Below, piece by piece: positions 1 through 20,240 of a stretch of DNA of 64,000 nucleotides. Numbering within the stretch: the stretch's first letter is position 1; every line of letters starts with the position of its first letter. The DNA is from a virus (taxonomy: Duplodnaviria > Heunggongvirae > Uroviricota > Caudoviricetes). The translations under genes were made by a program, and so were the position numbers. The stretch is from IMG/VR virus record IMGVR_UViG_3300008111_001458, one strand, 5' to 3'. The notes under the pieces were generated by a model that saw nothing but the letters and a program-made list of their open reading frames with translations, ran no database searches and was not told where the DNA came from.

Positions 1-1
1 T

Positions 2-535
2 TTTACTCCAGAGTTAGATTGGGAACCTTTACGTAAGGAGATGAAAGAACATGGTGTACGAAATGCTACTCTTATGGCTATTGCTCCAGTTGAGTCTAGT
101 AGTGTTGTTATTAATAGTACTAATGGAATAGAATTACCTATGAGCCTTATTTCTACTAAAGAGTCAAAGGCAGGATCATTTACACAGGTAGTTCCCGAGT
201 ATCATAGATTAAAAAACAAATATCAATTAATGTGGGAACAGCGTGACTGTTCTGGATATCTAAAAACAGCAGCAGTGTTAGCTGCCTATGTAGATCAAAG
301 TATTAGTACCAATACATTCTACAATCCAGCACATTTTATAGATCGTAAAGTTCCAACTACATTAATTGCTAAAAACTTAATGCAAGCTCACATGTGGGGT
401 TTAAAAACTTTCTATTATAGTTTGATTAACAAACAAGGTAGTAAAGCACAAGAAGAAAAAGTTCAGGAAGTCGTTAATTATAATGGCTACCATAATGAAG
501 AATTAGAAGATGATTGCGAGGCATGTAAACTATGA
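2..535 (+). CDS. nrdA: Ribonucleotide reductase class Ia large subunit, C-terminal fragment (5' end of the gene lies outside the window)
   Basis: The frame is open from the window edge. The C-terminus (GLRNATLMAIAPVESSS ... QSISTNT ... LKTFYYS ... DDCEACKL) matches the conserved NrdA tail, including the C-terminal Cys pair. nrdB follows immediately. Confidence 0.75.
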   Translation, partial: FTPELDWEPLRKEMKEHGVRNATLMAIAPVESSSVVINSTNGIELPMSLISTKESKAGSFTQVVPEYHRLKNKYQLMWEQRDCSGYLKTAAVLAAYVDQSISTNTFYNPAHFIDRKVPTTLIAKNLMQAHMWGLKTFYYSLINKQGSKAQEEKVQEVVNYNGYHNEELEDDCEACKL

Positions 536-1632
536 GTACGGCACAGTATAATTTAAACACAAAAACAGACTACCTTAATCGCAAAATGTTCCTTGATCCA
601 GCCGGACCAGTTACTATTCAAAGGTTTGAGGAAGTCAAATATAATAAAATTTCAGACTTTGAAAAAACAGCTAGGGGTTTCTTTTGGGTTCCTGAAGAAA
701 TTAGTCTAGCTAAAGATGCAAATGATTTTAAGGAAGCCAGCGATGCAGTTAAACATATCTTCACTAGCAACCTGCTTAGGCAAACTGCTCTTGACAGTCT
801 GCAAGGCCGCGGCCCAAGTCAAATCTTTACTCCGGTCGTAAGTCTACCAGAACTAGAAGCACTGGTCTATAACTGGACATTCTTTGAAACAAACATCCAC
901 AGTCGCAGTTACAGTCACATTATTCGTAACATTTACAATGTGCCCAAGGATGTATTCAACACAATCCATGACACTAAAGAAATTGTCGACATGGCTAGTT
1001 CAGTAGGTAATTATTATGAATCTTTACATCGTATCAATATGCAAGTTGAACTAGGTATGGATGTCAAAAAAGAAGATCATATTAAAGCAATCTATCTAGC
1101 ACTACATGCCAGTTATGCTCTCGAAGCATTCCGCTTTATGGTATCGTTCGCTACATCACTAGCAATGGTTGAGAATAAGATCTTTATCGGCAACGGCAAC
1201 ATCATCAGTTTGATTCTACAAGACGAATTGCTACACAAAGGATGGACTGCTTGGTTAATCAATCAAGTGGTCAAAGAAGATCAAAGATTTGCCCAGGCAG
1301 CTCGAGAATGTCAAGAAGAAGTAATTCAAATTTACAAAGATGTTATTGCAGAAGAAAAAGGGTGGGCTGACTATCTGTTTAAGAAAGGTCCGGTGATTGG
1401 ATTGAATGCTAACATTCTAAAAGACTTTGTAGACTATACTGCTGTTGGAGCATTAAAAGATATTGGTATTAAATATTGGGATGTTGCTCCTAAAACTACA
1501 CCAATTCCTTGGTTCAATAAACATTCAGACACCAGTAAAAAACAAACGGCTCTGCAAGAAAATGAATCAACTAATTATGTCATTGGTGTAATGAGTGATG
1601 CTCTAAATTATGCAGAGCTTCCAGCAATTTAA
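532..1632 (+). CDS. nrdB: Ribonucleotide reductase small (beta) subunit
   Basis: 366 aa. The N-terminus resembles E. coli NrdB (FFWVPEEISLAKD), and ferritin-like di-iron helices are present. It starts on an ATGA overlap with nrdA. Confidence 0.85.
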   Translation: MSTAQYNLNTKTDYLNRKMFLDPAGPVTIQRFEEVKYNKISDFEKTARGFFWVPEEISLAKDANDFKEASDAVKHIFTSNLLRQTALDSLQGRGPSQIFTPVVSLPELEALVYNWTFFETNIHSRSYSHIIRNIYNVPKDVFNTIHDTKEIVDMASSVGNYYESLHRINMQVELGMDVKKEDHIKAIYLALHASYALEAFRFMVSFATSLAMVENKIFIGNGNIISLILQDELLHKGWTAWLINQVVKEDQRFAQAARECQEEVIQIYKDVIAEEKGWADYLFKKGPVIGLNANILKDFVDYTAVGALKDIGIKYWDVAPKTTPIPWFNKHSDTSKKQTALQENESTNYVIGVMSDALNYAELPAI

Positions 1633-1644
1633 TTAAGTAAAGAT

Positions 1645-1812
1645 ATGTATAAAGCACAGTTTAAAAGTAAGAGTCCATACGAATCGTGGACTACTCTTGG
1701 AACATTTGGAACAGAAGCCCAAGCTATCTCTGCTGCTCTACAAAAAAAACAAAAAGGTGCTGTTATGGTTAGAGTTGTTGATAAAAACAACAGCATTGTT
1801 TATTCAAGTTAA
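1645..1812 (+). CDS. Small hypothetical protein (55 aa) between nrdB and the glutaredoxin
   Basis: ORF found by hand; it is below the track's size threshold. It exactly fills the nrdB-grx gap. Confidence 0.3.
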   Translation: MYKAQFKSKSPYESWTTLGTFGTEAQAISAALQKKQKGAVMVRVVDKNNSIVYSS

Positions 1813-1821
1813 GGAAGAAAG

Positions 1822-2061
1822 ATGAAAGCAGTAGTATGGAGTAAGTATCATTGTCCATTCTGTGATCAAGCTAAGGCACTGCTCACAGCAAAGGGCATTC
1901 AGTTTGAAGAAAAGAAAATTGGCGATGGATTTACCAAAGAAGATTTATTAGAAGCTGTTCCTAATGCAAGAACAGTTCCACAAATTTTCTTAGATGATAA
2001 GTTAATTGGTGGTTTTACAGAATTAAAAGCATATCTAGCAAAGGAACAAAATGTTAATTGA
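1822..2061 (+). CDS. Glutaredoxin-like thiol-disulfide oxidoreductase, probably the RNR electron donor
   Basis: 79 aa with a CPFC active-site motif near the N-terminus (YHCPFCDQAK). A good RBS (aaggaag) precedes it, and it is adjacent to nrdAB. Confidence 0.8.
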   Translation: MKAVVWSKYHCPFCDQAKALLTAKGIQFEEKKIGDGFTKEDLLEAVPNARTVPQIFLDDKLIGGFTELKAYLAKEQNVN

Positions 2062-2341
2062 TAAAGGCGTAACAGAAGGTGAAGTAGTAACTCTAAAACT
2101 ATCAACTGGTGAAGAGTTAATAGCAAAATTAATTGAGGATGGTGCCCTCTATTACAAATTAAGTAAGCCCATGGTTCTTAGTATGACACAAAAGGGTGTG
2201 GGCATGATGCCTTATCTTTTTACAGTTAATCCAGAAAAAGAAATTAAATTGTTTAAGACCAATGTAGTGGTGTTAGAAGCTACTGACAAAGATTTTGCTA
2301 CTGCATATACGCAACAAACAACAGGAATAGCTCTAGCATAA
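2051..2341 (+). CDS. Hypothetical protein
   Basis: 96-aa ORF translationally coupled to the neighbouring genes. Confidence 0.4.
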   Translation: MLIDKGVTEGEVVTLKLSTGEELIAKLIEDGALYYKLSKPMVLSMTQKGVGMMPYLFTVNPEKEIKLFKTNVVVLEATDKDFATAYTQQTTGIALA

Positions 2342-2342
2342 T

Positions 2343-3371
2343 ATGGTAAAAGCAATACAGAGACTCAAGGATGAAAACACATCCGGTGGTGAGATTGTCG
2401 AAACCGATGGCAACACTACTGTTTATGCTAATGATCGTTTAGTATCTGTTAATACAAGTTTAGTTGGAGAATTCATAGAAGGCGATATACAAGCCAACGA
2501 TGTAACCGCTAACGGAAGCAATGCAGTGTTTGTTCGTTTAATTGGAGTCAACTACACAACTAATAAAGACGAAAGTGGTGCTACTAGAATTGGTGGTAGT
2601 TCGGACGTTTTTGTTGGAGATGATGTTGATCAAGATATTCCTAGTATTAGAGAAGTTGTAACTGCCGACGATCTTGACCTCGATCCTGAAGATCCAGGAG
2701 CTGGCCGAAGAAGGTACGAAGAGCTAGTAAGAAATGGTACTATTAGCAAACGAGAACAAGATGTTGCTTCCCCAAAACCCAGTGGAAAGAAAGATACTGC
2801 TCCTAGTAAATTTACCGGGACACCAACAACTGCCTGCGAAGGAATTGAATTAATAGTTGAACCCCCCGGTCTTCCTCCATTACAGGGATCGGTGTTAGAT
2901 GCTGTTCAATTGTCACCAAGATTCACTGTTGGAAAACTAACTAGAGCTCCTAATATAATTTTTGATCATCCCCTTAAACTTGGTGATTTAAGATTATCAT
3001 TAGCAGAAACTGTGTGTAATTTAAAATTACTAGCAATCAATGTTTTAGAACCTATTTTTTCTAAATACCCAAATGCTTTTATAACAAATACATTTAGACC
3101 TGCATCAACAAGTCAAAAAAGTCAACATGTTACAGGACAAGCGGTGGATTTGCAATTTAGAAATGTCACTAAAGGTGATTATTATATAATTGCTCAAGAT
3201 TTAAAAAATTTAGTCCCTTTTGATCAATTTTTATTAGAATATAAAACTACAGGTACTAGATTACCGTGGATACATATAAGTTTTAGTAAATCCAACAATA
3301 GAAAACAGGTTCTTACTTTGCTTAATGATACAACATATGGTCAAGGACTAATTGATTTACAGGCACAATAA
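2343..3371 (+). CDS. Protein with a C-terminal LAS / peptidase-M15-like (D-Ala-D-Ala carboxypeptidase fold) peptidoglycan hydrolase domain; possibly virion-associated
   Basis: The C-terminal third carries SQHVTGQAVD ... WIHISF, which matches the S-x-H-x-x-G-x-A-x-D ... H zinc signature of the VanY / M15 family. The N-terminal 200 aa are not recognised. Confidence 0.55.
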   Translation: MVKAIQRLKDENTSGGEIVETDGNTTVYANDRLVSVNTSLVGEFIEGDIQANDVTANGSNAVFVRLIGVNYTTNKDESGATRIGGSSDVFVGDDVDQDIPSIREVVTADDLDLDPEDPGAGRRRYEELVRNGTISKREQDVASPKPSGKKDTAPSKFTGTPTTACEGIELIVEPPGLPPLQGSVLDAVQLSPRFTVGKLTRAPNIIFDHPLKLGDLRLSLAETVCNLKLLAINVLEPIFSKYPNAFITNTFRPASTSQKSQHVTGQAVDLQFRNVTKGDYYIIAQDLKNLVPFDQFLLEYKTTGTRLPWIHISFSKSNNRKQVLTLLNDTTYGQGLIDLQAQ

Positions 3372-3781
3372 TGAAAAAATTATTTTGGAACATTTTAGGA
3401 TTTTTAAGTTTGGGTATGGCCTACATAGGTTTGGTAACCCCCGGCATTCCTTACTCACCATTCATTGTATTTTCTGCATATTGTTTTAGCAAAGGCTCAG
3501 AACGTATGCATCGTTGGATCTACAATCATAAGATTTTTGGTCCGTTCTTAACCAACTGGACAGAAAAGCGTGTGTTCCCAACTAAACTAAGATATCTCAT
3601 GTTAGCCATGATGAGTCTAAGTTTAGTGCTGATGTGGACGGGAGGGGTTAAGCCTATAGGGATAATCAGCACAGCAATATTCATGCTTTTAGTTGCAGTG
3701 TGGGCCTGGAGATATCCAGCAACACCAGAAGAACATGATCAAAGAAAATTAGATAATAAGAGGATTGGATGGCTAAAATAA
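3371..3781 (+). CDS. DUF454 / YbaN-like inner-membrane protein
   Basis: 136 aa with 3-4 TM segments. The motif GIPYSPFIVFSAYCFSKGSERMHRW is typical of the YbaN family. Confidence 0.55.
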   Translation: MKKLFWNILGFLSLGMAYIGLVTPGIPYSPFIVFSAYCFSKGSERMHRWIYNHKIFGPFLTNWTEKRVFPTKLRYLMLAMMSLSLVLMWTGGVKPIGIISTAIFMLLVAVWAWRYPATPEEHDQRKLDNKRIGWLK

Positions 3782-4026
3782 CATTGAACGAATTAATTGA
3801 CATTGCTTTTGCTGCCGAGGAAGGGGATCCAATTGAGTGGGGAATCTTTACCAACGGTAAAGAACAAGCAATGACAATGATCGGAACTAGTATCTTAGAA
3901 CAGTTCGACAAAGACATTATTACAGATGAAGATAAACTAATACTGTTAGCAACAATTACTAAATTGGTAACAGAAAATATGGTATTAAACACAAAGCTAT
4001 TGACATTGTCTAAAAAAGATAGTTAA
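3769..4026 (+). CDS. Hypothetical protein
   Basis: 85-aa ORF. Confidence 0.4.
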   Translation: MAKITLNELIDIAFAAEEGDPIEWGIFTNGKEQAMTMIGTSILEQFDKDIITDEDKLILLATITKLVTENMVLNTKLLTLSKKDS

Positions 4027-4033
4027 ATAACAT

Positions 4034-4108
4034 ATGAACGATGATTTAACAAGATTCTTAGTTGGTTTTCTTATAGTCGCGGCTGTGCTTTTTATTATAC
4101 TACTATGA
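4034..4108 (+). CDS. Tiny hydrophobic peptide (24 aa)
   Basis: Hand-found ORF MNDDLTRFLVGFLIVAAVLFIILL. It overlaps the next small ORF in an ATGA junction. Confidence 0.2.
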   Translation: MNDDLTRFLVGFLIVAAVLFIILL

Positions 4109-4239
4109 TTTTTAATCTTTTAATTTTAGCATTTGCTGTATACTGTTTAGTAGTATGGATCCATGCGTTAGTAACATACGATTGGACTAAATTTGAAGAG
4201 GATTCAAAAGACGACGATTTTTTGAAACCTTATGAATAA
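4105..4239 (+). CDS. Small membrane peptide (44 aa)
   Basis: Hand-found ORF MIFNLLILAFAVYCLVVWIHALVTYDW... It ends just upstream of the tmRNA acceptor piece. Confidence 0.2.
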   Translation: MIFNLLILAFAVYCLVVWIHALVTYDWTKFEEDSKDDDFLKPYE

Positions 4240-4243
4240 AGAA

Positions 4244-4307
4244 TTGTTGTAATTCCTTCAAAGTGAAGGCATTCTGGACGCGGGTTCGACTCCCGCCAGG
4301 TCCACCA
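4244..4307 (+). ncRNA. ssrA: tmRNA acceptor piece (3' half of the tRNA-like domain: T-arm + acceptor 3' strand + ACCA) of a permuted two-piece tmRNA
   Basis: The sequence ggcattctGGACGCGGGTTCGACTCCCGCCaggtccACCA is near-identical to the 3' end of canonical tmRNA. It ends in a discriminator A plus CCA. No 5' acceptor strand lies upstream, so it is not a tRNA. Confidence 0.6.
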
Positions 4308-4428
4308 ATAGAGATGATTATGAACACTACACAAACTATAAAATTAGCAGGATTTTTTCTAGGAACGTATATTTTATACAGACTAGGATTAGAAGTTTGG
4401 TGTATAGTTTATGGACTACTTTATTGAT

Positions 4429-4646
4429 GGGCCTGACATGGTTTCGACAGGGTGAGATAATAGAGACGGCAACACGGTAGGCGATGACCGTAAATCAAGC
4501 AAATCTATAAATGCAAACGATAATGCATTTGACTTTACAGCAATGAGCTTCACCGGTAACACTGTTGCCAATGACAGCAAATTTGCTCTAGCAGCCTAAG
4601 AAACTGCAAGTCCGGGGTAGCTATACCTTGTAACCCAAAATAGTGA
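4429..4646 (+). ncRNA. ssrA: tmRNA coding piece (5' acceptor strand GGGCCUG, D-loop analogue, resume codon and tag ORF ANDNAFDFTAMSFTGNTVANDSKFALAA, stop TAA at 4597-4599)
   Basis: gggcctgacatggtttcgacaggg matches the canonical tmRNA 5' end GGGGCUGAUUCUGGAUUCGACGGG. GGGCCUG pairs with caggucc of the upstream piece with a G3-U wobble. The reading frame 4514-4599 begins GCA-AAC-GAT (A-N-D) and ends ALAA-stop. Confidence 0.6.
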
Positions 4647-4672
4647 AAAGCCCCCTTGGGGGCTTTTCTTTA
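4646..4672. terminator. Bidirectional rho-independent terminator
   Basis: GC stem agccccc-tt-gggggct followed by a T run. It sits between the tmRNA coding piece (+) and the convergent lipoprotein gene (-). Confidence 0.6.
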
Positions 4673-5134
4673 TTGCGGATAGACTAAAACGTTTTCTTCG
4701 GTTCCGATAATAGGATCAACTATAAGTTTCCCAAATCCTAGCATGGTCTGATTAGTGTTAATAGCAATGTCTTTGTTATTGTTGCTGTTGACTATGGCAA
4801 GATCAGTGCTTTTCCCAATACCATAAATTTGAGTAAGGCTGGGCACAATTACACTAGCCCACCGCAGAGCTGTGTCGCCTGTGCTAGTAGGTTGCTGTAG
4901 CTTAGGACTGTTGTTTTCCGGTGCGCCTTGCTGTAATGCAATTACAGCGGCTACACGAGCCGTGGTGTCGCCACTATTGGCAATAGCTTCTAATGCCTTG
5001 TATCGTGCAATTTCTGCTTCTGCTCTTGCTAGGGCAATATTTTCTTGGGTTTGGGCGTATTGTTGGTAGTTGTTAGATGCACAACCAGTTAGTGTTATGA
5101 CGCAGATGGCGCCGGCGAGAATAGTTTTTCTCAT
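4670..5134 (-). CDS. Lipoprotein (signal peptide with lipobox LTGC)
   Basis: 154 aa. The N-terminus MRKTILAGAICVITLTGCASN fits a lipobox. It is the only minus-strand gene in the first 27 kb. Confidence 0.55.
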   Translation of the reverse strand: MRKTILAGAICVITLTGCASNNYQQYAQTQENIALARAEAEIARYKALEAIANSGDTTARVAAVIALQQGAPENNSPKLQQPTSTGDTALRWASVIVPSLTQIYGIGKSTDLAIVNSNNNKDIAINTNQTMLGFGKLIVDPIIGTEENVLVYPQ

Positions 5135-5246
5135 AATAGTTTCCTTATAAATGATTTTATTTGGAAACTACTTAGATCAACTTACTCCCAATATAATATT
5201 GGCATATAAGGCTTAACAGCGAAAGAATTACTTCGGTAACTTTTTT

Positions 5247-5275
5247 TTGAGTTTTTATTCTAAAGACTATATAAT
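5247..5275 (+). promoter_or_regulatory. sigma70-like promoter TTGAGT-17-TATAAT
   Basis: -35 at 5247-5252 and a perfect -10 TATAAT at 5270-5275. The predicted transcription start coincides with ATG 5283, so the mRNA would be leaderless. Confidence 0.4.
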
Positions 5276-5282
5276 AACTCTT

Positions 5283-6137
5283 ATGAAACGTACCTCTATT
5301 AAAGAACTTTTTGGCGGTGAAGTTGCCTTCACCAAGTTCATCTCTCAAGATATTCAAACTGCCAAACGTTTGATTAATGCTATTTCTGCAGACTATGACG
5401 ATGATTATACAGTCAAACCAGAGGATCATACGATTGATTCAAAACGTGTTGATCTTGTAATCCGCGATTCAGAAAACGTAGTTGCGTATGTAATTGAAAG
5501 CCAAGATTGTACTGGCTGGCTTGATTCAATTCATGCCAGCAAGATTCTTTATTATATGTACGAAAAAGAATGTTCAGAAGGTATTTTACTTTGCGAAGAT
5601 GCAGATGAGCATATCAAAGGATTTGTTCGTTGGTGCAATGAAAATACACCTGTACAGATTTGGTTGATGAGTGCTGTATGTTTTGAAGTTAATAATTCAA
5701 AGTATGTAGACTTCATTCCTTTGATTCGGCCAGGTATGCTTAAAGATAAAAAGATTCGTCGAGTATCATCAAACGGATCTACATCAGCGTCTGTAGACTT
5801 TTCAGAAATGTTACAAGAAAAAGCAGACCAACATCCTGGTTTATTCACGAATGTAAGATCAAGATATCTCAGTACAAATGGTGTAGGAGGATCTGGGATC
5901 AACGTAGGTATTAGTCCACGTAAGAGTGGTTACTTTATGGTTACCATTTGGCATGCAGGCAAATGGAATAATGATAAATTTAGAAATAGTTTTAATGAAT
6001 TTGTTAAAAACGAAACTAATCTAGAACCTAAGTGGCAAGATAGACAGAGTTATGTAAATGTAGATTCTTGGGACGAAGGTATAGAAGTTTATAAAAAATT
6101 TATAGATGGTTTAAAGTCTAAACAGATTGTCGGATAA
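5283..6137 (+). CDS. Hypothetical protein (possible PD-(D/E)xK-like core; unassigned)
   Basis: The track ORF 5247-6137 is trimmed to the in-frame ATG 5283 (MKRTSIKELF) because the promoter lies inside its 5' end. No recognisable family. Confidence 0.45.
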   Translation: MKRTSIKELFGGEVAFTKFISQDIQTAKRLINAISADYDDDYTVKPEDHTIDSKRVDLVIRDSENVVAYVIESQDCTGWLDSIHASKILYYMYEKECSEGILLCEDADEHIKGFVRWCNENTPVQIWLMSAVCFEVNNSKYVDFIPLIRPGMLKDKKIRRVSSNGSTSASVDFSEMLQEKADQHPGLFTNVRSRYLSTNGVGGSGINVGISPRKSGYFMVTIWHAGKWNNDKFRNSFNEFVKNETNLEPKWQDRQSYVNVDSWDEGIEVYKKFIDGLKSKQIVG

Positions 6138-6180
6138 TTTGATATTGAAAAATCCTATTATCGTCATTGAAAAATATTAG

Positions 6181-6200
6181 ACAAAATCTATAGATTTTGT
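6181..6200. promoter_or_regulatory. Perfect 20-bp palindrome ACAAAATCTATAGATTTTGT (candidate operator) upstream of ahpC
   Basis: Exact inverted repeat lying immediately 5' of the -35 element. Confidence 0.45.
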
Positions 6201-6236
6201 TTGATTTATAGGATAACTAAATGTATAGTTATACAT
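6201..6236 (+). promoter_or_regulatory. ahpC promoter TTGATT-17-TATAGT with a second palindrome ATGTATA-GT-TATACAT overlapping the -10
   Basis: -35 at 6201-6206 and -10 at 6224-6229. The inverted repeat at 6221-6236 overlaps the -10, the usual position for a repressor site. Confidence 0.45.
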
Positions 6237-6283
6237 AGAACTTGTTGTTCTTTACGTTTTCAACACACACTTAAGGAGATAAA

Positions 6284-6817
6284 ATGAAAACAGTTGGTGA
6301 TAAAATTGAAGCATTTGCCGTAACCGGCGTTAATCCTGGTAAAGATGATTTCTTTACCATTACTGAAAAGTCATACGAAGGTAAGTGGAAAGTAATTGTT
6401 TACTATCCAAAAGACTTTACATTTGTATGCCCAACAGAAATCGTAGCATACGATAAATTGAATAGTGATTTTGCCGATCGTGACGCAGTATTACTAACTG
6501 GTTCAACAGATAACGAATTCTGTAAACTGGCATGGCAAGCAGCCCATGAAGATCTTAAAAAAATCAAACATGTTCAGTTTGCTGATACACAGCGTAACGA
6601 ATTGAGCCTTATTGATCAGCTTGGCGTATTCTATGCTCCAGCAGGTGCTGCACTTCGTGCAACATTCATTGTTGATCCAGAGAATGTTATCCAACACATT
6701 ACTGTCAACAACTTGAATGTTGGTCGCTCACCAGAAGAAACACTTCGTGTATTAGACGCATTGCAAACAGGTGAACTTTGTGCTTGCAACCGTACAGTTG
6801 GCGGAGAGACACTGTAA
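6284..6817 (+). CDS. ahpC: Peroxiredoxin (AhpC/Prx1 family, typical 2-Cys)
   Basis: 177 aa with the peroxidatic motif FTFVCPTEI. RBS aaggag is 7 nt upstream. Confidence 0.85.
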   Translation: MKTVGDKIEAFAVTGVNPGKDDFFTITEKSYEGKWKVIVYYPKDFTFVCPTEIVAYDKLNSDFADRDAVLLTGSTDNEFCKLAWQAAHEDLKKIKHVQFADTQRNELSLIDQLGVFYAPAGAALRATFIVDPENVIQHITVNNLNVGRSPEETLRVLDALQTGELCACNRTVGGETL

Positions 6818-7332
6818 TGACTGCTTGGGTAGATCAAATTAAAGAAACTATTCCGGACTATGCTAAAGACACTCGTCTTAACATTGATGCAGTAGTTAAG
6901 CGTTCTACTCTACCCCAAGAAGAAGCAGAAGCTGTTGCTATCGCAGCGGCTTTTGCCACAGGTAATAGTAAACTGTGGACTTGGATGCAGAGTCAGGCAA
7001 TAGATAAGAAAGAAACTGAAGCAGCAGTTACCGCAGCTAGTCTAATGGCCATGAACAATGTATGGTACCCATTCGTTGAAATGGCTGAGGATCCTAATCT
7101 AACAGGATTACCGGCACAGTTGCGTATGAACGCAATTACTACACATGGCGGCACTACTAAAGCAAGATTTGAAGCATATTCTTTATCTGCTAGTATTGTT
7201 GGCAAGTGTCATTTTTGTGTGAAAGCACATTATGAAACACTCAAGCAAGAAGGATATACAGTAGAACAATTACGTGATATTGGGCGCATAGCGGCAGTTA
7301 TCACCAGTGTATCCAGAGTACTAAATAGTTAA
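6817..7332 (+). CDS. ahpD: AhpD-like carboxymuconolactone decarboxylase family protein (alkylhydroperoxidase partner)
   Basis: The start is reset to ATG 6817 (TAATG overlap with the ahpC stop; same frame as the 6778 track ORF). It has a CxxxH motif (KCHFCVKAH) and is adjacent to ahpC. Confidence 0.6.
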   Translation: MTAWVDQIKETIPDYAKDTRLNIDAVVKRSTLPQEEAEAVAIAAAFATGNSKLWTWMQSQAIDKKETEAAVTAASLMAMNNVWYPFVEMAEDPNLTGLPAQLRMNAITTHGGTTKARFEAYSLSASIVGKCHFCVKAHYETLKQEGYTVEQLRDIGRIAAVITSVSRVLNS

Positions 7333-7369
7333 TCGCCGTAACAGAACTGTAATCTTAGGTCTCTTAAAT

Positions 7370-7405
7370 AAGAAGGTACAACATAGTGTTGTACCTTTCT
7401 TTTTA
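7370..7405 (+). terminator. Rho-independent terminator after ahpD
   Basis: 14-bp stem aagaaggtacaaca / tgttgtacc(t)ttctt followed by TTTTT. Confidence 0.55.
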
Positions 7406-7428
7406 TTCACTCACACAAGGAGATTACA

Positions 7429-8454
7429 GTGAAAAAAATCATACTGACACTACTGGCGGCATTGACCGTTTCAGCACATGCAGCGGATCTAACAGGAGCA
7501 GGGGCAACATTTCCTTATCCTATCTATTCAAAATGGGCCGAAGCATATAAAGCAGCAACAGGCATCGGACTCAACTATCAATCAATTGGTTCAGGCGGCG
7601 GCATCCGTCAAATCAAAGCTAAGATTGTAGATTTTGGCGCCAGTGACATGCCACTAAAACAAGACGAATTAGACAAAGACGGTCTAATGCAATTCCCTGC
7701 AATCATTGGCGGAGTTGTGCCGATTGTAAACATTGATGGTATTGGTGCAGGACAACTTAAACTTACCTCAGACATTATTGCTGACATCTATATGGGTAAG
7801 ATCGTCAAGTGGGATCATCCCAGCATCACAGCAATCAATCCAGGATTAAAATTACCTAATGCAAATATCTCTGTGGTTCACCGCAGTGATGGTTCAGGTA
7901 CAACCTTTATATGGACTAACTGGTTAAGCAAGACTAATAAAGAATGGGCAGATAAAGTCAAAGACGGCACCGCAGTCAAATGGCCAATGGGTGTAGGTGG
8001 TAAGGGCAATGAAGGTGTAAGTGCTGTGGTCCAACAACTAAAAAATAGTATTGGTTATGTAGAATATGCCTATGCTAAACGCAACAAGATTCCACACGCA
8101 CAAGTCAAAAATCGTGATGGCAACTTTGTACAGCCTAGCGATGATACATTCAAGGCAGCGGCAGCAGGTGCAGACTGGGCAAATGCTCCAGGGTTCTATC
8201 TATTGCTAACAGACCAAAAAGGCAAGGACGCTTGGCCTATTACAGGTGCCAGTTTCATTCTCATGCATAAGCAACAAGAGGATGCACTAACAGGTCGTGC
8301 AGTTCTTAAGTTCTTTGATTGGAGTTACAAGAACGGCGGGCAGATGGCTACAGATTTAGAATATGTACATCTTCCACAATCTGTTATTACATTAGTACAG
8401 AATCATTGGAAGACTCAGTTAAAAGATAAGGATAGCAACGCTATTTGGAAGTAA
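7429..8454 (+). CDS. pstS: Phosphate ABC transporter substrate-binding protein
   Basis: 341 aa. GTG start with RBS aaggag, a signal peptide, and the PstS-family motifs TFPYPIY ... SIGSGGG ... GASD. Confidence 0.85.
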   Translation: MKKIILTLLAALTVSAHAADLTGAGATFPYPIYSKWAEAYKAATGIGLNYQSIGSGGGIRQIKAKIVDFGASDMPLKQDELDKDGLMQFPAIIGGVVPIVNIDGIGAGQLKLTSDIIADIYMGKIVKWDHPSITAINPGLKLPNANISVVHRSDGSGTTFIWTNWLSKTNKEWADKVKDGTAVKWPMGVGGKGNEGVSAVVQQLKNSIGYVEYAYAKRNKIPHAQVKNRDGNFVQPSDDTFKAAAAGADWANAPGFYLLLTDQKGKDAWPITGASFILMHKQQEDALTGRAVLKFFDWSYKNGGQMATDLEYVHLPQSVITLVQNHWKTQLKDKDSNAIWK

Positions 8455-8464
8455 GCAGTACCCA

Positions 8465-8495
8465 CCGCCAGTGATCACTGGCGGATCTATTTTAT
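8465..8495 (+). terminator. Terminator-like perfect palindrome CCGCCAGTGATCACTGGCGG followed by a T-rich tract
   Basis: 20-bp perfect inverted repeat at 8465-8484 followed by atctatttta. Confidence 0.45.
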
Positions 8496-8506
8496 AAGGA
8501 TTTAAA

Positions 8507-9919
8507 ATGAAAACATTACTTAAGGTAATGCTGGCGTCATCTGTGACAGCATTTATACCTGCACCTGCACACGCAGACGAATACAAAGACACACTTGAAA
8601 TTCTAAAAAATAAAAATATTCTTACACAGAAAGAATATGATATTAAACTTAAAGAATATGAAGAAAAAGAAGAAAACAAAAAGTTTATTGAACAGAGAAT
8701 TGACAGAGATGTCAGCGACTCAGTCAAATACAGACAGGCCAGAGTTAATGACGGATCAGTCACAGAAAACGGAATTGGACTCAAAAGCAAAGATGGCGGC
8801 AACACCGTCCAGCTTACAGGTCGACTACATATGGACTATCGTCAGTACTCCCCGGATTACGGTACAGGTCAAACCACAGATTCGTACCAGAATACTGCTG
8901 AAGCACGACGAGCCAGATTTGGAGTAAGAGGTCAGTTTGCCAAAGATTTCAAATATCAATTATTAGCAAACTTTGGTGCCAGTGATGGTTTTAGTTCAAC
9001 ATCGAGTACAGCAGATGAAATGTGGGTCAACTATGCTGCAAATCCAGAAGCACAGTTTCAATTTGGTTTATTCAAGATGCCATTCAGTCTTGAGCAGTTA
9101 ACAAGTTCAAACAATCTTGACTTTATGGAACGCAGTTTAATTGGTCAAAATGATACAGAGTTTATACCTGCTAAAGAAACTGGATTTATGTTACATGGTA
9201 TTCCTAAGCCTGGCTTAACATACGCTCTAGCATTAAGCAGAGGTAAGAGCAATAAGAGTGCCGAGTTTGATGGCTTTGACTACATTAGTCGTGTAACTAC
9301 AAACATCGCTGAACTAACCGGAAGCAAAGCATATACAGCACATTTAGGTGCCGCTTATAGTACAGGTGAAATCAAAAGCGGTGTAGCTCCAGCAAGTGGT
9401 AGAACAGAATCACGTATGCAATCAGGATGGTTTACAGGATCTGCTCTTAGCGGTGCAACTACAAGAACACGTCAAGGCCTCGAAGCTGCATTTGCTTATA
9501 ATGCATTTAAGGTGCAAGGCGAACATTTTCAATTTAATTATGATCCTGCAACAGGTAACGATCAGAAAATAAATGGATACTATGTGCAAGCTGTGTATAA
9601 TCTAACAGGTGAGTCACACTCATATAAAGATGGCGCATTTGGTTGGATCAAACCTGCTAATCCTTTGGACAAAGGTGGTCGTGGTGCATGGCAAGTTGGT
9701 GTACGTATGAGTGAGTTTGATGCCAGTGACATTACTGTAGCTACCGGCAAATCAAATCGTGCTACTGCTATGACATATGGTGTTACCTGGTTCTGCACAG
9801 ACAACCTACGTTTTATGTTAAATTATGTAGACACAAAATTTGATAGTCTAGTAGGCAGTTCAGGTAGTCGTGTAAACGGCGAACGTGCTGTTATGTTTAG
9901 AAGCCAACTAAGTTTTTAA
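8507..9919 (+). CDS. Outer-membrane porin, probably phosphate-selective OprO/OprP-like
   Basis: 470 aa with a signal peptide (AHA cleavage), C-terminal aromatic residue (F), beta-barrel-like alternating pattern, and position directly after pstS. The family call rests on weak motif recall. Confidence 0.5.
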   Translation: MKTLLKVMLASSVTAFIPAPAHADEYKDTLEILKNKNILTQKEYDIKLKEYEEKEENKKFIEQRIDRDVSDSVKYRQARVNDGSVTENGIGLKSKDGGNTVQLTGRLHMDYRQYSPDYGTGQTTDSYQNTAEARRARFGVRGQFAKDFKYQLLANFGASDGFSSTSSTADEMWVNYAANPEAQFQFGLFKMPFSLEQLTSSNNLDFMERSLIGQNDTEFIPAKETGFMLHGIPKPGLTYALALSRGKSNKSAEFDGFDYISRVTTNIAELTGSKAYTAHLGAAYSTGEIKSGVAPASGRTESRMQSGWFTGSALSGATTRTRQGLEAAFAYNAFKVQGEHFQFNYDPATGNDQKINGYYVQAVYNLTGESHSYKDGAFGWIKPANPLDKGGRGAWQVGVRMSEFDASDITVATGKSNRATAMTYGVTWFCTDNLRFMLNYVDTKFDSLVGSSGSRVNGERAVMFRSQLSF

Positions 9920-9941
9920 TAAATAACTTGGCATTTATAAT

Positions 9942-9967
9942 GCCCCATCTAATGGGGCTTTTTTTTG
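9942..9967 (+). terminator. Rho-independent terminator (gccccat-cta-atggggc + T9)
   Basis: 6-7 bp GC stem with a 3-nt loop followed by nine T. It contains the recurring CTAATGGG motif. Confidence 0.7.
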
Positions 9968-9977
9968 GACACACTAA

Positions 9978-10157
9978 ATGGAAACACACAAACGAACACT
10001 AACACGAGCAATTACATGGAGAATTACCGCAACTCTTATAACTGCGGCATGGACAGGATTGGCAGGAGCTATCGTTATTAATATTTTTATGACTGTTGCC
10101 CACTACATACATGAACGATTTTGGCTAAAAATTGAGTGGGGTAAACAGATCAATTAG
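9978..10157 (+). CDS. DUF2061-like small membrane protein (59 aa)
   Basis: Hand-found ORF METHKRTLTRAITWRITATLITAAWTG... The ITWRI..T...W pattern is characteristic of DUF2061. Confidence 0.4.
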   Translation: METHKRTLTRAITWRITATLITAAWTGLAGAIVINIFMTVAHYIHERFWLKIEWGKQIN

Positions 10158-10265
10158 CCTATTTTAATGAATTTCACTATGGTTTTCTGGTAGTTTTTAT
10201 CATATAATGCAGATACATACTGTTGCAATAGTATGTTTTTATTGTTGTTAAAAAGGAGAAGCATT

Positions 10266-10337
10266 ATGTGGACCAAGCCAGAAGCAACCGAGATGCGTTA
10301 TGGTTTTGAGATCACTATGTACATCGCTAATCGCTAA
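10266..10337 (+). CDS. pqqA: PqqA-like 23-aa peptide (coenzyme PQQ precursor-peptide homolog)
   Basis: [23 protein letters not shown] compared with Klebsiella PqqA [23 protein letters not shown]: same length, 12 of 23 identical, and the conserved E-x-T-x-Y ... NR core (the Glu and Tyr cross-linked by PqqE). RBS aaggag is 8 nt upstream and its own terminator follows. Confidence 0.5.
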
Positions 10338-10356
10338 TACATAGTATCAAAAATCA

Positions 10357-10379
10357 AAACCCGCTCCGGCGGGTTTTTT
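10357..10379 (+). terminator. Rho-independent terminator after the PqqA-like ORF
   Basis: cccgc-tccg-gcggg stem followed by TTTTTT. Confidence 0.6.
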
Positions 10380-10380
10380 C

Positions 10381-10408
10381 TTGACTTTTATTGCAAATAT
10401 GTTATACT
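10381..10408 (+). promoter_or_regulatory. sigma70-like promoter TTGACT-16-TATACT
   Basis: -35 at 10381-10386 and -10 at 10403-10408, upstream of ORF 10441. Confidence 0.45.
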
Positions 10409-10440
10409 ATATGCTCAGTAACTAATTTTGGAGATATACT

Positions 10441-10812
10441 TTGAGTATGCATTTGGAAGGTCCGTGGCTCAGTACCACAGGCAAGAAAAAAAGCAAACGT
10501 AAATTTCGTAATGCTGAAGAAGCACGTAAGTCTCGCGAGTTACAAGATTCTTGGCAGTCGTTGTTAGAAAAGTATGATGTGCCAAAAACTAGTAAACAGA
10601 AAAAATTTGAACCATTAAAGGCCAAATCAGCACCTATAAGAGAGACTCCAAAGATTCCTAGTCTTCCTTTTACTGCTGGACCTTGTACTAAACCAGAGCA
10701 GAAAGTTTATACTGGTACAAAAGTTAAAGGTATTGGCACTATGCATAAAAGTAATGCTGTTCCAATTTTTTCAGACGAAGAAGCTGTAGAAATTGCCAAA
10801 ATGAGGCGATAA
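10441..10812 (+). CDS. Hypothetical basic (Lys-rich) protein
   Basis: 123-aa ORF downstream of a consensus promoter. Confidence 0.45.
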   Translation: MSMHLEGPWLSTTGKKKSKRKFRNAEEARKSRELQDSWQSLLEKYDVPKTSKQKKFEPLKAKSAPIRETPKIPSLPFTAGPCTKPEQKVYTGTKVKGIGTMHKSNAVPIFSDEEAVEIAKMRR

Positions 10813-11112
10813 TACCACATTTTAGTACCAAAATGAGTGATATATGCTATATAAAAATACGTTTCGCAAAGAAACTAAGATAGTAGAACCAAAGTATGTC
10901 AAAAGCTGAAACGGTTCCGCGAGTCTTGGCCAATTGGAAACCCGTGAGATTCGGGCGGTCAAGGCTCCAAAGGCACACAAGTTATGAGATTGTGCGTCCA
11001 ATGGAGACAACTACACGAACCCAGGGTTCTTCATTTAGAGCCTCGTGAAGTTTACTCCCTTAATGTAATGTAATATGAAGTTCGTATTACACCAAATGAA
11101 AGGAGATACAAA

Positions 11113-11652
11113 ATGGAAAAAGTAATAAAACCTATAATTTTGATTATTGGGTTAGTACTAACAGTAATGTCTATTAAAGCTGTTACAGCCGTAAAACTAA
11201 ATCAATTAAAACAGACAGCAGGAGTTTCTTATTCTGATGTTGTCACAATTCGTGAACGTGAGCGTCAGTTAGATTGCTTGGCTAGAAATATCTATCACGA
11301 AGCGGCCAGCGAACCATTTGAGGGTAAAGTTGCGGTAGCACAGGTTACAATGAACCGTGCATCCAGCGGCAAATTCCCAAATGATATTTGCGGTGTTATA
11401 TACCAAAAGAATGTTTTCTATGAAAAAGTAGTTTGCCAATTTAGTTGGTACTGCGAAGGTCACGGTAAAAGCAAACCAATTCGTAGCAAAGAAATGTACG
11501 ACGAATCATATCGTGTTGCTAAAAAAGTATTGTTAGAAAACTTTAGACTTGACGTTATGAAAGAAGCCATGTATTATCATGCTGATTACGTGAACCCTCA
11601 ATGGGGTAGAGAAAAGATTGGCAAAATTGGTCGTCATATATTTTACAAATAA
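11113..11652 (+). CDS. SleB-like cell-wall hydrolase (Hydrolase_2 family) with N-terminal membrane anchor
   Basis: LARNIYHEAASEPFEGKVAVAQVTMNR matches the SleB/Hydrolase_2 core. RBS aaaggag. Confidence 0.65.
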   Translation: MEKVIKPIILIIGLVLTVMSIKAVTAVKLNQLKQTAGVSYSDVVTIRERERQLDCLARNIYHEAASEPFEGKVAVAQVTMNRASSGKFPNDICGVIYQKNVFYEKVVCQFSWYCEGHGKSKPIRSKEMYDESYRVAKKVLLENFRLDVMKEAMYYHADYVNPQWGREKIGKIGRHIFYK

Positions 11653-11661
11653 GGATTAAGA

Positions 11662-11973
11662 ATGGAAAAGTTTGAGTTGTTGTTTAATAAATGCAGAGAA
11701 TTTTTATCTACCAAATTAAGTCACATCAGTAGCGAAGCTTTGGGTTGGTTAGCTACTATTGTGATTCATGCATCAACCTTGCCAACGTTTCTTGCAGTTA
11801 TGATGGGATTAACTGACAAGCTACCTGGCGTTGATATCATTCTAATGGTTTGGGGTGGACTAACCTTGTTGTTCTTTAGAGCCGTGTTAATCAAAGACAT
11901 GCTCAATGTAGCAACAATTGGATTTGGTTTTATTCTTCAAGCTGTATTCATGTCACTGATTTTCTTTAAGTAA
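11662..11973 (+). CDS. Small 3-TM membrane protein
   Basis: 103 aa with three hydrophobic segments. Confidence 0.45.
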   Translation: MEKFELLFNKCREFLSTKLSHISSEALGWLATIVIHASTLPTFLAVMMGLTDKLPGVDIILMVWGGLTLLFFRAVLIKDMLNVATIGFGFILQAVFMSLIFFK

Positions 11974-11991
11974 TTTTGGTAATCACCGTAG

Positions 11992-12020
11992 TTGACTTTG
12001 GTCGACTGCGGTGTTATATT
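11992..12020 (+). promoter_or_regulatory. sigma70-like promoter TTGACT-17-TATATT
   Basis: Lies inside the 5' extension of track ORF 11992, so the real start is ATG 12055. Confidence 0.45.
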
Positions 12021-12054
12021 AGTAACTGTCTTAACACACACAGAAAGAGGCATT

Positions 12055-12531
12055 ATGAAAAAGGCAATTTTAGTAGGCTTAATGGCAGCGGCTATTACAG
12101 GCTGTTCGTCTATGAAAGATATTCCAGAACGTAAAACTTATGCTCAACCTAGTTGGTATCAGGATTGCGCACAAGAAGGCATCAAAGGCTGGTTCTGGTG
12201 GAAAGAAGACTATGTCTATGCCTGCGGTGCAGGTGAATCAGCATACGCACAGGCTGCTGAAGAGCAAATGGATGCAATTGCAATGAATAACTTTGCAAAA
12301 CGCATTAATGGTACAGTAAACTCTGAAACTGTAATTGATATCAAAGACGATAAGAAAACTACTCGTACACTGATTTCTTACAAAGTTACTGATACTGCTA
12401 TTCGTCGTCACGTCAAGACCGAAAAAGGCCACTTTACGATGAATGGACGCCACTACACTTATGTACGGCTTGAAATGAAAAAGTCTACATTTGAACAATT
12501 GATGAACGAAGCTAAACAGAAAGCACAATAA
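12055..12531 (+). CDS. Lipoprotein
   Basis: MKKAILVGLMAAAITGCSS lipobox. RBS agaaagagg. Confidence 0.55.
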   Translation: MKKAILVGLMAAAITGCSSMKDIPERKTYAQPSWYQDCAQEGIKGWFWWKEDYVYACGAGESAYAQAAEEQMDAIAMNNFAKRINGTVNSETVIDIKDDKKTTRTLISYKVTDTAIRRHVKTEKGHFTMNGRHYTYVRLEMKKSTFEQLMNEAKQKAQ

Positions 12532-12845
12532 TGAAATTATTGATTATTGCTGCTACCGCTGTAATTTTAGCGGGCTGTAGTTCTGCCCCTAAAATTGCAG
12601 CCGAAAAGCCGCAGTATTGTCACACTTATCAAACAATAAAATCTAAGAACGGTGATACTGTTAATAGTGAGACTACTGTCAAATGTACTGATGATCAGGT
12701 TGAACGTGTAACTTCAAAACGTCTAGGTATGGCGGACAATTGTGGTTATTTTACTAGTTATATGAAAGTTGGAGGCAAAGATGTTCCGTATCGTGCGATT
12801 AGTTGTTTTGACGGTCGTAATTGGGAAATCATTAATGTTCAGTAA
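12531..12845 (+). CDS. Small lipoprotein
   Basis: MKLLIIAATAVILAGCSS lipobox. ATGA-coupled to the preceding gene. Confidence 0.5.
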   Translation: MKLLIIAATAVILAGCSSAPKIAAEKPQYCHTYQTIKSKNGDTVNSETTVKCTDDQVERVTSKRLGMADNCGYFTSYMKVGGKDVPYRAISCFDGRNWEIINVQ

Positions 12846-13200
12846 TGCATTAGCATCTGATTTTAATAATCCTAAATTTTTTGAATATTCAGGTGGTGAT
12901 TTTATAAATCGTCTTTCTGATCTTAGTTTTGGATGGTTTAAAACACTATCAACTGAAGAAAGTGTAGCTTATCACCAAAGCATAACCCATGCGATAATGT
13001 ACGCAGATAATGGGCAAAGTGTACGTTGGTTTAGAGGAAATGCCAGCGGCGAATCTACCCCAATTATGACATATCCCTCAGGCAATGGTTATTGCAGAAG
13101 GATATATATTAGAGTAATTGCCCATGAAACTGAAAAACGCCTAAAAAATACGGCCTGTTATAATAAGACAAACGACAGGTGGATGTGGGTCAATGAATAA
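12769..13200 (+). CDS. Secreted hypothetical protein
   Basis: N-terminal signal-like segment. The start is uncertain because it overlaps the previous ORF. Confidence 0.4.
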   Translation: MEAKMFRIVRLVVLTVVIGKSLMFSNALASDFNNPKFFEYSGGDFINRLSDLSFGWFKTLSTEESVAYHQSITHAIMYADNGQSVRWFRGNASGESTPIMTYPSGNGYCRRIYIRVIAHETEKRLKNTACYNKTNDRWMWVNE

Positions 13201-13224
13201 ATATAACATTAAGGAGATATTTTT

Positions 13225-13920
13225 ATGGCCTCAGGATTCCAACAAGACACAAACCAACTAAGTCCTAATTTTTATAGAGTAACTATTGATCTTAGTGGTT
13301 ATGATTCCACAGCCGCTAATACGACTTCGGGTAGTGTTGAACCTGATAGCGGCGATTCTTTCGCAACAATGAACACAACTTTAGCAAATTCAAGACGTCG
13401 TGCTAGAGGTAACTTACGTTGGGAAGCAATTATCAGCAACCTGTCAAAGCACAGTGATTGCCAAATTTTAGATGTTACTGCTACAGAAGCAGGCCCATCA
13501 ACTCTAGATGTAGCAGATGATGTTACTACTGCACTTTCTTTCACAGTTAGATATGATCGTGATGCATTTGTATTGCCTGGTGTTCAAGCTCAGTTAATTG
13601 CCGAGGGAAGAATTTCCGGTGGAGCAGCCAAAATGACTGATCATGAAACTCTTGGCAGTGCAACTAGTTGTACCACAACTGCATTAGCTGTTAAAGAAAT
13701 GATAGTTCGTGGTATTACTAAAGGATATGCCGATTATCTAACTAACGTTTCTACTGCTGTTAATTCATCAACAGACGTATTTCAAAAGTCTGCTAGAGTT
13801 TATGACGGCATCGGTGGTGGTCAAGAAACGGTTACAGTTGCATCCCCAGTAACTCCAAAGGTTGCTCATACTGATGTGACAGTGACACTGGTTGACACAG
13901 TTACCTTGGTGAATGCATAA
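13225..13920 (+). CDS. Hypothetical protein, possibly structural or abundant
   Basis: 231 aa, T/S/V-rich. Strong RBS aaggagat. Confidence 0.45.
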   Translation: MASGFQQDTNQLSPNFYRVTIDLSGYDSTAANTTSGSVEPDSGDSFATMNTTLANSRRRARGNLRWEAIISNLSKHSDCQILDVTATEAGPSTLDVADDVTTALSFTVRYDRDAFVLPGVQAQLIAEGRISGGAAKMTDHETLGSATSCTTTALAVKEMIVRGITKGYADYLTNVSTAVNSSTDVFQKSARVYDGIGGGQETVTVASPVTPKVAHTDVTVTLVDTVTLVNA

Positions 13921-15085: not shown

Positions 15086-15365
15086 AAGGCTATCAACAGA
15101 ACAGCGAACAAAGCAATTCTACAGTTTGGAAAAAAATTAAAGAAAGACAACCAGTAGAAGATAACTTTACCCCACGCGATAGAATATATAGAAATCTAAA
15201 CAAAGACAATTTAAGTTCTTTGGATCTAGAAATTTATAATGAAGAAGATCCCGAGCTAATTAGAATTATGACGTTTATTAAAAAATTGCGGTCTCGTGAA
15301 ATAAAACCGGAAGACTTGTCAGTCGAAGATGCTGAAATCGTTGCAGAAGTATTATCTAAAATCTA

Positions 15366-16003: not shown

Positions 16004-16009
16004 AGTACT

Positions 16010-20191: not shown

Positions 20192-20197
20192 TATAAT

Positions 20198-20223: not shown

Positions 20224-20240
20224 TAACCTACAGAGGAAAT

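Follow-up and report, generated by a model that had tools for sequence, protein, structure and literature searches.

Permuted genes for transfer-messenger RNA (tmRNA; ssrA), in which the molecule is encoded in two pieces, have already been reported in phages. Buchholz et al. (2022; PMC9004378) described a two-piece ssrA in the OM43 phage Melnitz and listed 133 unique tmRNAs in 18,146 phage genomes, 53 of which were permuted and 50 of these from aquatic phages; the permuted carriers in their Table S1 include phages of Caulobacter, Synechococcus, Pelagibacter, Stenotrophomonas and Bordetella, among others. The Rfam model RF04321 derives from a 2025 tmRNA database in which 79 sequences come from phages (PMC11915505), and huge phages with both tmRNA and SmpB are known (Al-Shayeb et al., 2020; PMC7162821). 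Suggested roles for a phage tmRNA include keeping ribosomes free as host mRNA decays, recycling of amino acids and sensing of the host state. Here we describe such a gene in the IMG/VR viral record IMGVR_UViG_3300008111_001458, a stretch of 64,000 nucleotides (nt) that we refer to as the window: positions 4245–4668 very probably form a functional ssrA gene whose product is a circularly permuted, two-piece tmRNA of the betaproteobacterial structural type, in an uncultivated and probably jumbo-sized phage. An initial sequence-only reading of the window had left room for this being the first permuted tmRNA in a phage, which the published cases contradict. A bare example adds little, as the kind is catalogued and standard tools detect the gene; what appears new here, and would deserve a note, is a family of long tags together with intervening sequences that bear open reading frames (ORFs).

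ARAGORN finds a single gene in the whole window, a permuted tmRNA (tmRNA*) at 4215–4690 with the tag ANDNAFDFTAMSFTGNTVANDSKFALAA. Rfam 15 gives full-length matches to two models, RF04321 tmRNA_permuted (152.6 bits with a gathering score of 47, E = 2.6e-30) and RF01850 beta_tmRNA (135.9 bits with a gathering score of 84, E = 2.4e-41); both lie above the gathering score and far above chance level. These results bear out what had been proposed from the letters alone, a phage-borne, circularly permuted two-piece tmRNA with a tag of 28 amino acids (aa) and its own terminator, and every sequence feature then described (T-arm, acceptor strands, ACCA, tag, terminator and ORF) is found in the sequence. 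The gene runs on the plus strand in the order acceptor piece, 121-nt intervening sequence, coding piece and terminator, with the T-arm, the 3' strand of the acceptor stem and the CCA (4280–4307) upstream of the 5' strand of the acceptor stem and the tag frame (4429–4599).

The acceptor piece (4245–4307), which forms the 3' part of the mature tmRNA, is delimited by the Rfam alignment and the sequence itself, and across 29 relatives its helices all pair at 100%, compensatory changes being seen among them. It contains the 5' strands of the P2 helices (4245–4249 and 4270–4276), the T-arm (4280–4296; a 5-bp stem, 4280–4284/4292–4296, closing the 7-nt loop UUCGACU), the acceptor 3' strand CAGGUCC (4297–4303), the discriminator A4304 and an encoded CCA (4305–4307). 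The intervening sequence (4308–4428) is an insertion in both Rfam models and ends in the leader UGAU before the first nucleotide (G1) of the coding piece; the 114 nt previously given for this segment is the length of the 37-codon ORF that does lie within it (4314–4427, plus strand), and the TGA stop of this ORF is, as claimed, 1 nt before G4429. The 5' end of the coding piece (4429–4474; defined by sequence, Rfam, joint folding and comparative pairing) begins 121 nt 3' of the acceptor piece with the acceptor 5' strand GGGCCUG (4429–4435, G3 being 4431), followed by the D-loop analogue ACAUGGUUUCGA (4436–4447) and the 3' strands of the P2 helices (4448–4454 and 4470–4474). At the position of pseudoknot PK1 in standard tmRNA the Rfam structure line places a hairpin, CGGU/ACCG with an 8-nt loop (4475–4490). 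Beyond the tag frame, the 3' domain holds a hairpin GGGGUA/UACCUU (4614–4629), and the last helix of the Rfam beta_tmRNA model is an intrinsic terminator hairpin (4645–4668) with a 10-bp GC-rich stem and T runs on both strands. This terminator is bidirectional, ending the tmRNA unit as well as a convergent minus-strand gene (4670–5134).

By comparison with the betaproteobacterial two-piece tmRNA (RF01850, since merged into RF04321), the window gene has the same gene order, a tRNA-like domain with G3-U, the P2 helices, the hairpin at the PK1 position, the resume context UAAAUGCAAACGA, a tag ending in FALAA, the 3' hairpin and the terminator. It differs in its intervening sequence (121 nt versus about 24 nt in the model), in a tag that is 15 codons longer than the model consensus, in its acceptor strand (GGGCCUG versus the consensus GGGGGUG), and in being located in a viral genome.

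When the two pieces are folded jointly, the T-arm and a 7-bp acceptor stem form, the latter through the pairing of GGGCCUG with CAGGUCC expected from the initial reading. The seven pairs of this stem include G4431-U4301, the G3-U70 pair, a feature used by alanyl-tRNA synthetase; with the discriminator A, the CCA, the 5-bp T stem and its 7-nt loop the tRNA-Ala-like domain is complete. Relatives were gathered by scanning IMG/VR for the 14-mer TGGTTTCGACAGGG and then applying ARAGORN, which gave many viral contigs with beta-type permuted tmRNAs. From 66 unique relatives RNAalifold recovered two P2 helices (outer and P2a) as well as the T-arm and acceptor stem, and when 29 distinct close relatives were aligned six helices proved to be 100% paired: outer P2 and P2a, the T and acceptor stems, the stop-codon hairpin (4591–4607) and the 4614–4629 hairpin. 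Pairs that change on both sides numbered 15 in this alignment versus 8.6 in shuffles, with none of 500 shuffles reaching 15; sliding the partners by 1–3 columns lowered pairing from 88% to about 43%. The G3-U pair is invariant (29/29), and compensatory changes are present in both the T stem and the acceptor stem, pair 6 of the latter being A-U, C-G or U-A in the closest relatives. In P2, 12 pairs are 100% paired and an A-U to G-C change occurs in four sequences; the stop-codon hairpin has A-U in the window where relatives have U-A; the 4614–4629 hairpin shows a U-A to C-G compensatory change in three sequences; and the 4475–4490 hairpin is kept in relatives with a different sequence, three of its pairs changing on both sides.

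The tag reading frame extends from the resume codon GCA (4513–4515) through 28 codons to the stop UAA (4597–4599), as called by ARAGORN; the frame proposed initially is present, with its start moved from 4514 to 4513. It has no start codon, opening instead at a resume codon for alanine, and ends in ALAA, and the UAA lies in the loop of the hairpin GCAG/CUGC (4591–4594/4604–4607). U and A occupy positions -5 and -4 before the resume codon, the resume site aligns with the Rfam consensus with high posterior probability, and the GUAAAU context of this first GCA is conserved in all relatives. The architecture is that of an aromatic-rich N-terminal module (the first 18 residues), conserved in the clade, joined to the tail ANDSKFALAA (the last 10 residues), which resembles an ordinary betaproteobacterial degradation tag. 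Tags of 26–31 aa with this architecture predominate among contigs found via the tmRNA 5' end or the neighbouring DUF454 gene, examples being ANADTFDFSAMSFTGNTVRGAANESRFALAA, ANDDSFDVSAISFTGNSVANDSRFALAA (from L206, the closest relative), ANADTFEFGALNFTGNTVGAANEGRFALAA and ANDDSFDFAALSFTGNTVGGRVALAA.

Selection statistics were computed on loci found by these two routes, with no selection on the tag itself. Across 19 unique reading frames mean dN was 0.165 and mean dS 0.587 (non-synonymous and synonymous divergence; dN/dS approximately 0.28), and the N-terminal 18 codons alone gave a dN of 0.14 and a dS of 0.53. Tag lengths were 26, 27, 28, 30 and 31 aa, every indel being a multiple of three, and the other two frames were closed by stops in 15–16 of 18 sequences; A1, A10, F13, T14, N16, V18 and the final L-A-A are invariant. 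Given that dN is below dS, that indels are in-frame only and that the other frames are stopped, the whole 28-aa frame is most likely translated and under purifying selection. This argues against a short tag, in which translation would resume at the internal GCC (4567) to give the 10-aa ANDSKFALAA, the 54 nt upstream being structural RNA that is open by chance. Such a model can point to the last 10 residues, which form a canonical tag by themselves; to members of the same clade with tags of only 10–13 aa, such as ANDKAFMLAA and ANDERFALAA; and to an RNA hairpin inside the supposed reading frame (4555–4569; GGUAAC-ACU-GUUGCC, 6 bp, codons G-N-T-V-A). However, it is the first GCA that aligns with the Rfam resume codon in its conserved context, the codons that the model treats as untranslated carry the constraint just described, and many members have no second AND-type start (...NTVSGKSKVALAA or ...NTVGGRVALAA), so that the model is inapplicable to them; we therefore regard a short tag as very improbable. 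The in-frame hairpin itself covaries in relatives (GGU/ACU, GGA/UCC, GGC/GCU): the wobble base of the Gly codon is paired with the middle base of the codon four positions on, which ties a choice between Ala, Thr and Ser to a synonymous site, and 31-aa variants have a CACCG-UUCG-CGGUG hairpin instead.

A DNA motif for the tag core, DF-AMSFTGN, was matched in 92 viral contigs and gave no match in representative genomes of 185,579 bacterial and archaeal species; conservation of this core in the 92 loci is partly by construction, as the search pattern fixed those bases. A looser scan of the bacterial and archaeal genomes, requiring only a beta-type 5' end and F-T-G-N codons 90–120 nt downstream, returned five chance matches only (three standard Clostridia tmRNAs with short tags and two non-tmRNA sites). 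Further, a tblastn search with the 28-aa tag found no match among GenBank phages, and the FTGN-type long tag was found in none of them. A second group of long viral tags (e.g. ANVSTFKFWQSPVSVAANDEAFALAA and ANANTFEYFETHVALNDERFELAA) shares the opening A-N/K-x-x-T-F-x-F/Y with the tag of Xanthomonas phage XacN1. The long tag (26–32 aa) forms a conserved family, apparently undescribed and found here only in viral contigs (more than 90); no description of it was found in the searchable literature.

How the gene would work can be outlined from established tmRNA biology. RNase P would cut the precursor at G4429 and trimming would expose the CCA at 4307, with loss of the intervening sequence; the two RNAs would stay base-paired and be charged by the host alanyl-tRNA synthetase. 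With host SmpB and EF-Tu, the two-piece RNA would enter ribosomes stalled on truncated mRNAs, translation would resume at GCA 4513 and append the 28-aa tag, and the tagged proteins, given their ordinary-looking tail, would be directed to host ClpXP-type proteases. The phage would probably gain in that ribosomes are freed and amino acids recycled during the destruction of host mRNA in infection.

The initial reading had further suggested that the virus supplies its own rescue and tagging machinery, citing bS21, IF-1, ClpS and a ClpP-like gene. Pfam confirms the first three of these context genes; tblastn with Escherichia coli queries found no SmpB, ClpP, ClpX or SspB in the 64-kb window, so that neither the ClpP-like gene nor the self-supplied machinery was upheld. 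Most likely the phage RNA works with host SmpB, alanyl-tRNA synthetase, EF-Tu and proteases, unless these partners are encoded elsewhere in the genome. The missing SmpB could also be taken to favour a decoy or regulator, whose tRNA-like domain would titrate host SmpB or block trans-translation, with tagging irrelevant, as has been proposed for mycobacteriophage DS6A. The DS6A tmRNA consists of little beyond a tRNA-like domain, and strong inhibition of tmRNA by a molecule of this sort has been noted (Hudson et al., 2014; PMC4131195); among the relatives, one locus (L156) has lost the resume region and keeps the tRNA-like domain. In the window clade, however, the tag frame, the resume context and the stop-codon hairpin are conserved and under purifying selection, all of which would be needless in a decoy, and we consider this explanation very improbable. 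A fragment of the DS6A or attP type, lacking a tag frame, was also considered and is ruled out by the full coding piece with its conserved tag frame; the complete coding piece adjoins the acceptor piece, and the locus is therefore not the attP-like remnant that the initial reading had named as the alternative.

The gene order at the locus is nrdA, nrdB, a small ORF, grx, two ORFs, the DUF454 gene, tmRNA, ahpC, ahpD and a cell-wall hydrolase gene, and this neighbourhood recurs in hundreds of IMG/VR contigs; in dozens of them the order from nrdA to ahpD is seen at 60–90% amino-acid identity. The DUF454 gene (3371–3781, plus strand; Pfam PF04304) is the conserved upstream neighbour, with 250 viral relatives, and its protein was used to collect clade members independently of the tmRNA sequence; of the 57 loci that extend far enough downstream of it, at least 37 have a permuted tmRNA there. 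Region 4100–4700 is 100% identical in four independent assemblies from different sources, and the exact NrdB protein is found on at least 22 contigs, one of them 0.2–1 Mb. From these recurrences the genome is real and recurrent, and probably jumbo-sized. The PHROG matches, among them a gp5-like lysozyme domain and an exonuclease, are in keeping with a large phage that has many auxiliary genes, as are the genes for bS21, IF-1, DnaK, Hsp20, ClpS, PstS, a porin, AhpC/AhpD and heme oxygenase and the bilin-reductase-like gene. The closest isolate NrdB proteins are those of Xanthomonas phages X1 and BUDD (approximately 60%) and of Stenotrophomonas phages of the Mendera group (55%), large phages that also carry permuted tmRNAs. 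A close DNA search of window positions 1–20000 against GenBank phages gave no match, and a distant search with 4200–4700 matched the T-arm region only, in 10 phages.

Given that tmRNA genes are common integration sites and that their fragments occur in prophages (PMC9004378, PMC4131195), we asked how the locus fits a bacterial origin, either as a host ssrA beside an integrated element or as an attP-type fragment from imprecise excision. The gene is whole in its two pieces, its tag and its terminator, no integrase is found near the tmRNA, the locus is syntenic in hundreds of viral contigs, the tag motif is absent from the bacterial and archaeal genomes scanned, and the G+C content (36–40%) is flat across the tmRNA neighbourhood; all of this speaks against a bacterial gene, which we hold to be extremely improbable. 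The viral assignment is strong but indirect, as it rests on IMG/VR membership, gene content and phage-like neighbours.

Several observations nevertheless weigh against a working two-piece tmRNA in a phage. The minimum-energy joint fold of the single sequence pairs the P2 strands in a way unlike the family consensus; the inter-piece P2 pairing anticipated by the initial reading is therefore absent from that fold, is backed by the covariation in relatives, and draws its support from the comparative data. No convincing second stem of a PK1 pseudoknot was seen in the window or in relatives, which have the conserved 4475–4490 hairpin there instead. No sigma-70-like promoter was found directly upstream of the tmRNA, so that transcription is presumably by read-through from upstream genes. 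In addition to the window, approximately 280 related viral loci (2.4 Mb), including the sequence beside the tmRNA, gave no SmpB by tblastn, whereas the same query found SmpB at 44% identity in three bacterial control loci; with none in the window, function would depend on a fit with host SmpB, or on genes elsewhere in the genome. About one-third of clade members have no detectable tmRNA at the locus and the copy in L156 is visibly decayed, which marks the gene as dispensable. No capsid or terminase gene was found in the 64-kb window. Finally, since the in-frame hairpin 4555–4569 covaries, the tag is in part conserved as RNA, and selection on the peptide identity of every residue is unproven.

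Permuted tmRNAs of isolated phages (among them Melnitz, the Pelagibacter phages HTVC008M and Mosig, phiCbK-like phages of Caulobacter, Synechococcus myophages and Stenotrophomonas phage Mendera; PMC9004378) are likewise complete two-piece ssrA genes in large aquatic phages. In the Melnitz group the gene is common in the clade and not universal, as here, and no adjacent phage SmpB was reported (PMC9004378). Melnitz and its relatives differ in that their gene is of alphaproteobacterial type and its 3' domain contains a glutamine riboswitch; in the window, Rfam detects no glutamine riboswitch and no further Rfam family. The closest cultured carriers that we found are the Xanthomonas phages XacN1, X1 and BUDD. 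The jumbo phage XacN1 (AP018399; L205, 1481–1901) scores 107.8 bits with RF01850 and has the tag ANANTFDYALAA, which opens like the long tags (AN-x-x-TF-D/E-F/Y); X1 (OQ427096; L204, 6941–7391), the isolate with the most similar NrdB (60%), scores 76.6 bits with RF04321, passes the tmRNA_permuted threshold only, and has its tmRNA a few kb upstream of nrdAB. The GenBank records annotate neither tmRNA. In both, G1 is preceded by the leader UGAU, as in the window; the Xanthomonas phage carriers differ in their tags of 12–14 aa and in having no obvious ORF in the intervening sequence, and their DNA likeness to the window is limited to the T-arm region.

The permuted gene order had been taken to narrow the host range. 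Gammaproteobacterial hosts such as Xanthomonas have a standard one-piece tmRNA gene, and yet XacN1 and X1 carry beta-type or permuted tmRNAs; in the same way Melnitz has an alpha-type gene although it infects OM43 (PMC9004378). Given these mismatches the form of the tmRNA fails to narrow the host, and the structural type of a phage tmRNA should not be read as revealing host lineage.

Tag length alone has a precedent in Mycoplasma, where the ssrA tag is 27 aa and is read by Lon, the extra residues being thought to inform recognition by a protease other than ClpXP (PMC8403727). Mycoplasma differs in its one-piece tmRNA, its unrelated tag and its lack of ClpXP, whereas the window tag keeps the ALAA C-terminus of the ClpX type. 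Our best guess is that the N-terminal 18-residue module would act as a second recognition element for an adaptor or a Lon-type protease. The tag hints at a phage that changes the destination of rescued proteins, and a tag found here only in viral contigs could provide a handle for telling phage-driven from host tagging in infected cultures or lake metaproteomes, through peptides with FDFTAMSFTGNTVANDSK or SKFALAA.

The intervening sequences are the most variable part of the gene, ranging from 29 to 273 nt with hypervariable sequence (93 unique versions). That of the window folds end to end (z = -2.36) and contains the 37-codon hydrophobic ORF MIMNTTQTIKLAGFFLGTYILYRLGLEVWCIVYGLLY at 4314–4427, taken from the ORF list, with a weak Shine-Dalgarno match (AGAG). 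This ORF has no homologue in any related locus compared and no PHROG match; its position matches that of small ORFs in the intervening sequences of relatives, and its translation is plausible. An ATG ORF of at least 19 codons starting no more than 30 nt from the CCA end is present in 42 of the 93 intervening sequences, compared with 14.8 ± 3.5 in shuffles (maximum 25 in 200). Considering the longest ORFs of at least 19 codons (n = 55), 31 have a Shine-Dalgarno-like 4-mer 4–15 nt upstream (e.g. TAAGGAGAT); 22 end at a stop just before G1, five stop sooner and 28 continue into the coding piece. Of the 93 versions, 66 have UGAU and 18 have UAAU as the last four bases before G1, which places a stop codon at -4 to -2 and U at -1; this leader could serve RNase P recognition, could stop ribosomes before they enter the tmRNA, or both.

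The ORFs of different intervening sequences are mutually unrelated; they include many single-helix membrane peptides (19–26 aa), proteins of 65–68 aa and an 84-aa thioredoxin. ORF-bearing loci, taken as the stretch from CCACCA to GGGCCUG, include L038, L122, L126, L154, L158, L215, L017, L039 and L262. The thioredoxin (WCGPC motif; phrog_22, E = 2e-13) lies within the tmRNA intervening sequence of L156 (540–790, minus strand) and also of L129 and L236. The tmRNA of L156 lacks about 70 nt, so that the resume codon, the hairpin and the P2 3' strand are all missing, and this thioredoxin-bearing copy looks to be decaying. A 44-aa ORF upstream of the window tmRNA (4105–4239; MIFNLLILAFAVYCLVVWIHALVTYDWTKFEED...) has a 41-aa homologue inside the intervening sequence of L262 and L264; small genes apparently enter and leave this slot. 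In three further loci (L124, L130 and L134) the 79-nt intervening sequence holds a T-arm-like stretch, GGTTCGAGTCCTAC, inside a long hairpin; it was considered as a possible tRNA and ARAGORN calls none. No description of ORF-bearing intervening sequences was found in the searchable literature.

Taken jointly, the tag and the intervening sequence allow two linked readings, a bipartite tag of the clade's own and a slot for small interchangeable genes, a combination that we put forward tentatively and think more apt to fail than to hold. In the first, the module A-N-x-D-T/S-F-D/E-F-x-A-M/L/I-S/N-F-T-G-N-T/S-V would be fused to a host-like ANDxxFALAA tail; if the module were read by an adaptor or protease other than the one that reads the host tag, the phage could route rescued polypeptides its own way, and proteomics could tell its products from those that carry the host tag. 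In the second, the slot would take up membrane mini-proteins and, in one case, a thioredoxin, with starts just after the CCA and many stops at a conserved UGA or UAA 1 nt before the RNase P site, and one precursor would then give two RNA pieces and a mini-mRNA. A variable, ORF-bearing intervening sequence may help to show what use compact phage genomes make of a spacer that a permuted RNA gene can dispense with.

The remaining features of the window concern its wider gene content. The genes for bS21 (15739–15978, plus strand; Pfam PF01165, E = 1.2e-19) and IF-1 (37134–37352, plus strand; Pfam PF01176, E = 4.4e-21) stand apart from a protein-quality-control cluster on the plus strand (17713–20549) that comprises DnaK (17713–19662), Hsp20 (19754–20191) and ClpS (20241–20549); bS21 and ClpS recur in relatives. 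DnaK, Hsp20 and ClpS stand side by side; the genes that follow, to 22036, encode a heme oxygenase and a protein resembling ferredoxin-dependent bilin reductases (phrog_7278), a combination familiar chiefly from cyanophages. AhpC, AhpD, PstS and a phosphate-selective porin O/P are encoded in a row at 6284–9919, a short way downstream of the tmRNA region; PstS and the porin occur in few relatives only (L018, L094 and L106), which marks them as recent additions. Positions 38900–63700, mostly on the minus strand, have a G+C content of approximately 31% versus 36–40% elsewhere and encode at least six radical-SAM proteins and a class-III aminotransferase; B12-binding domains are present in two of the radical-SAM proteins and an HMPTM-type zinc ribbon in one. 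From this content the region looks like a biosynthetic or modification gene cluster, which would be unusual in a phage.

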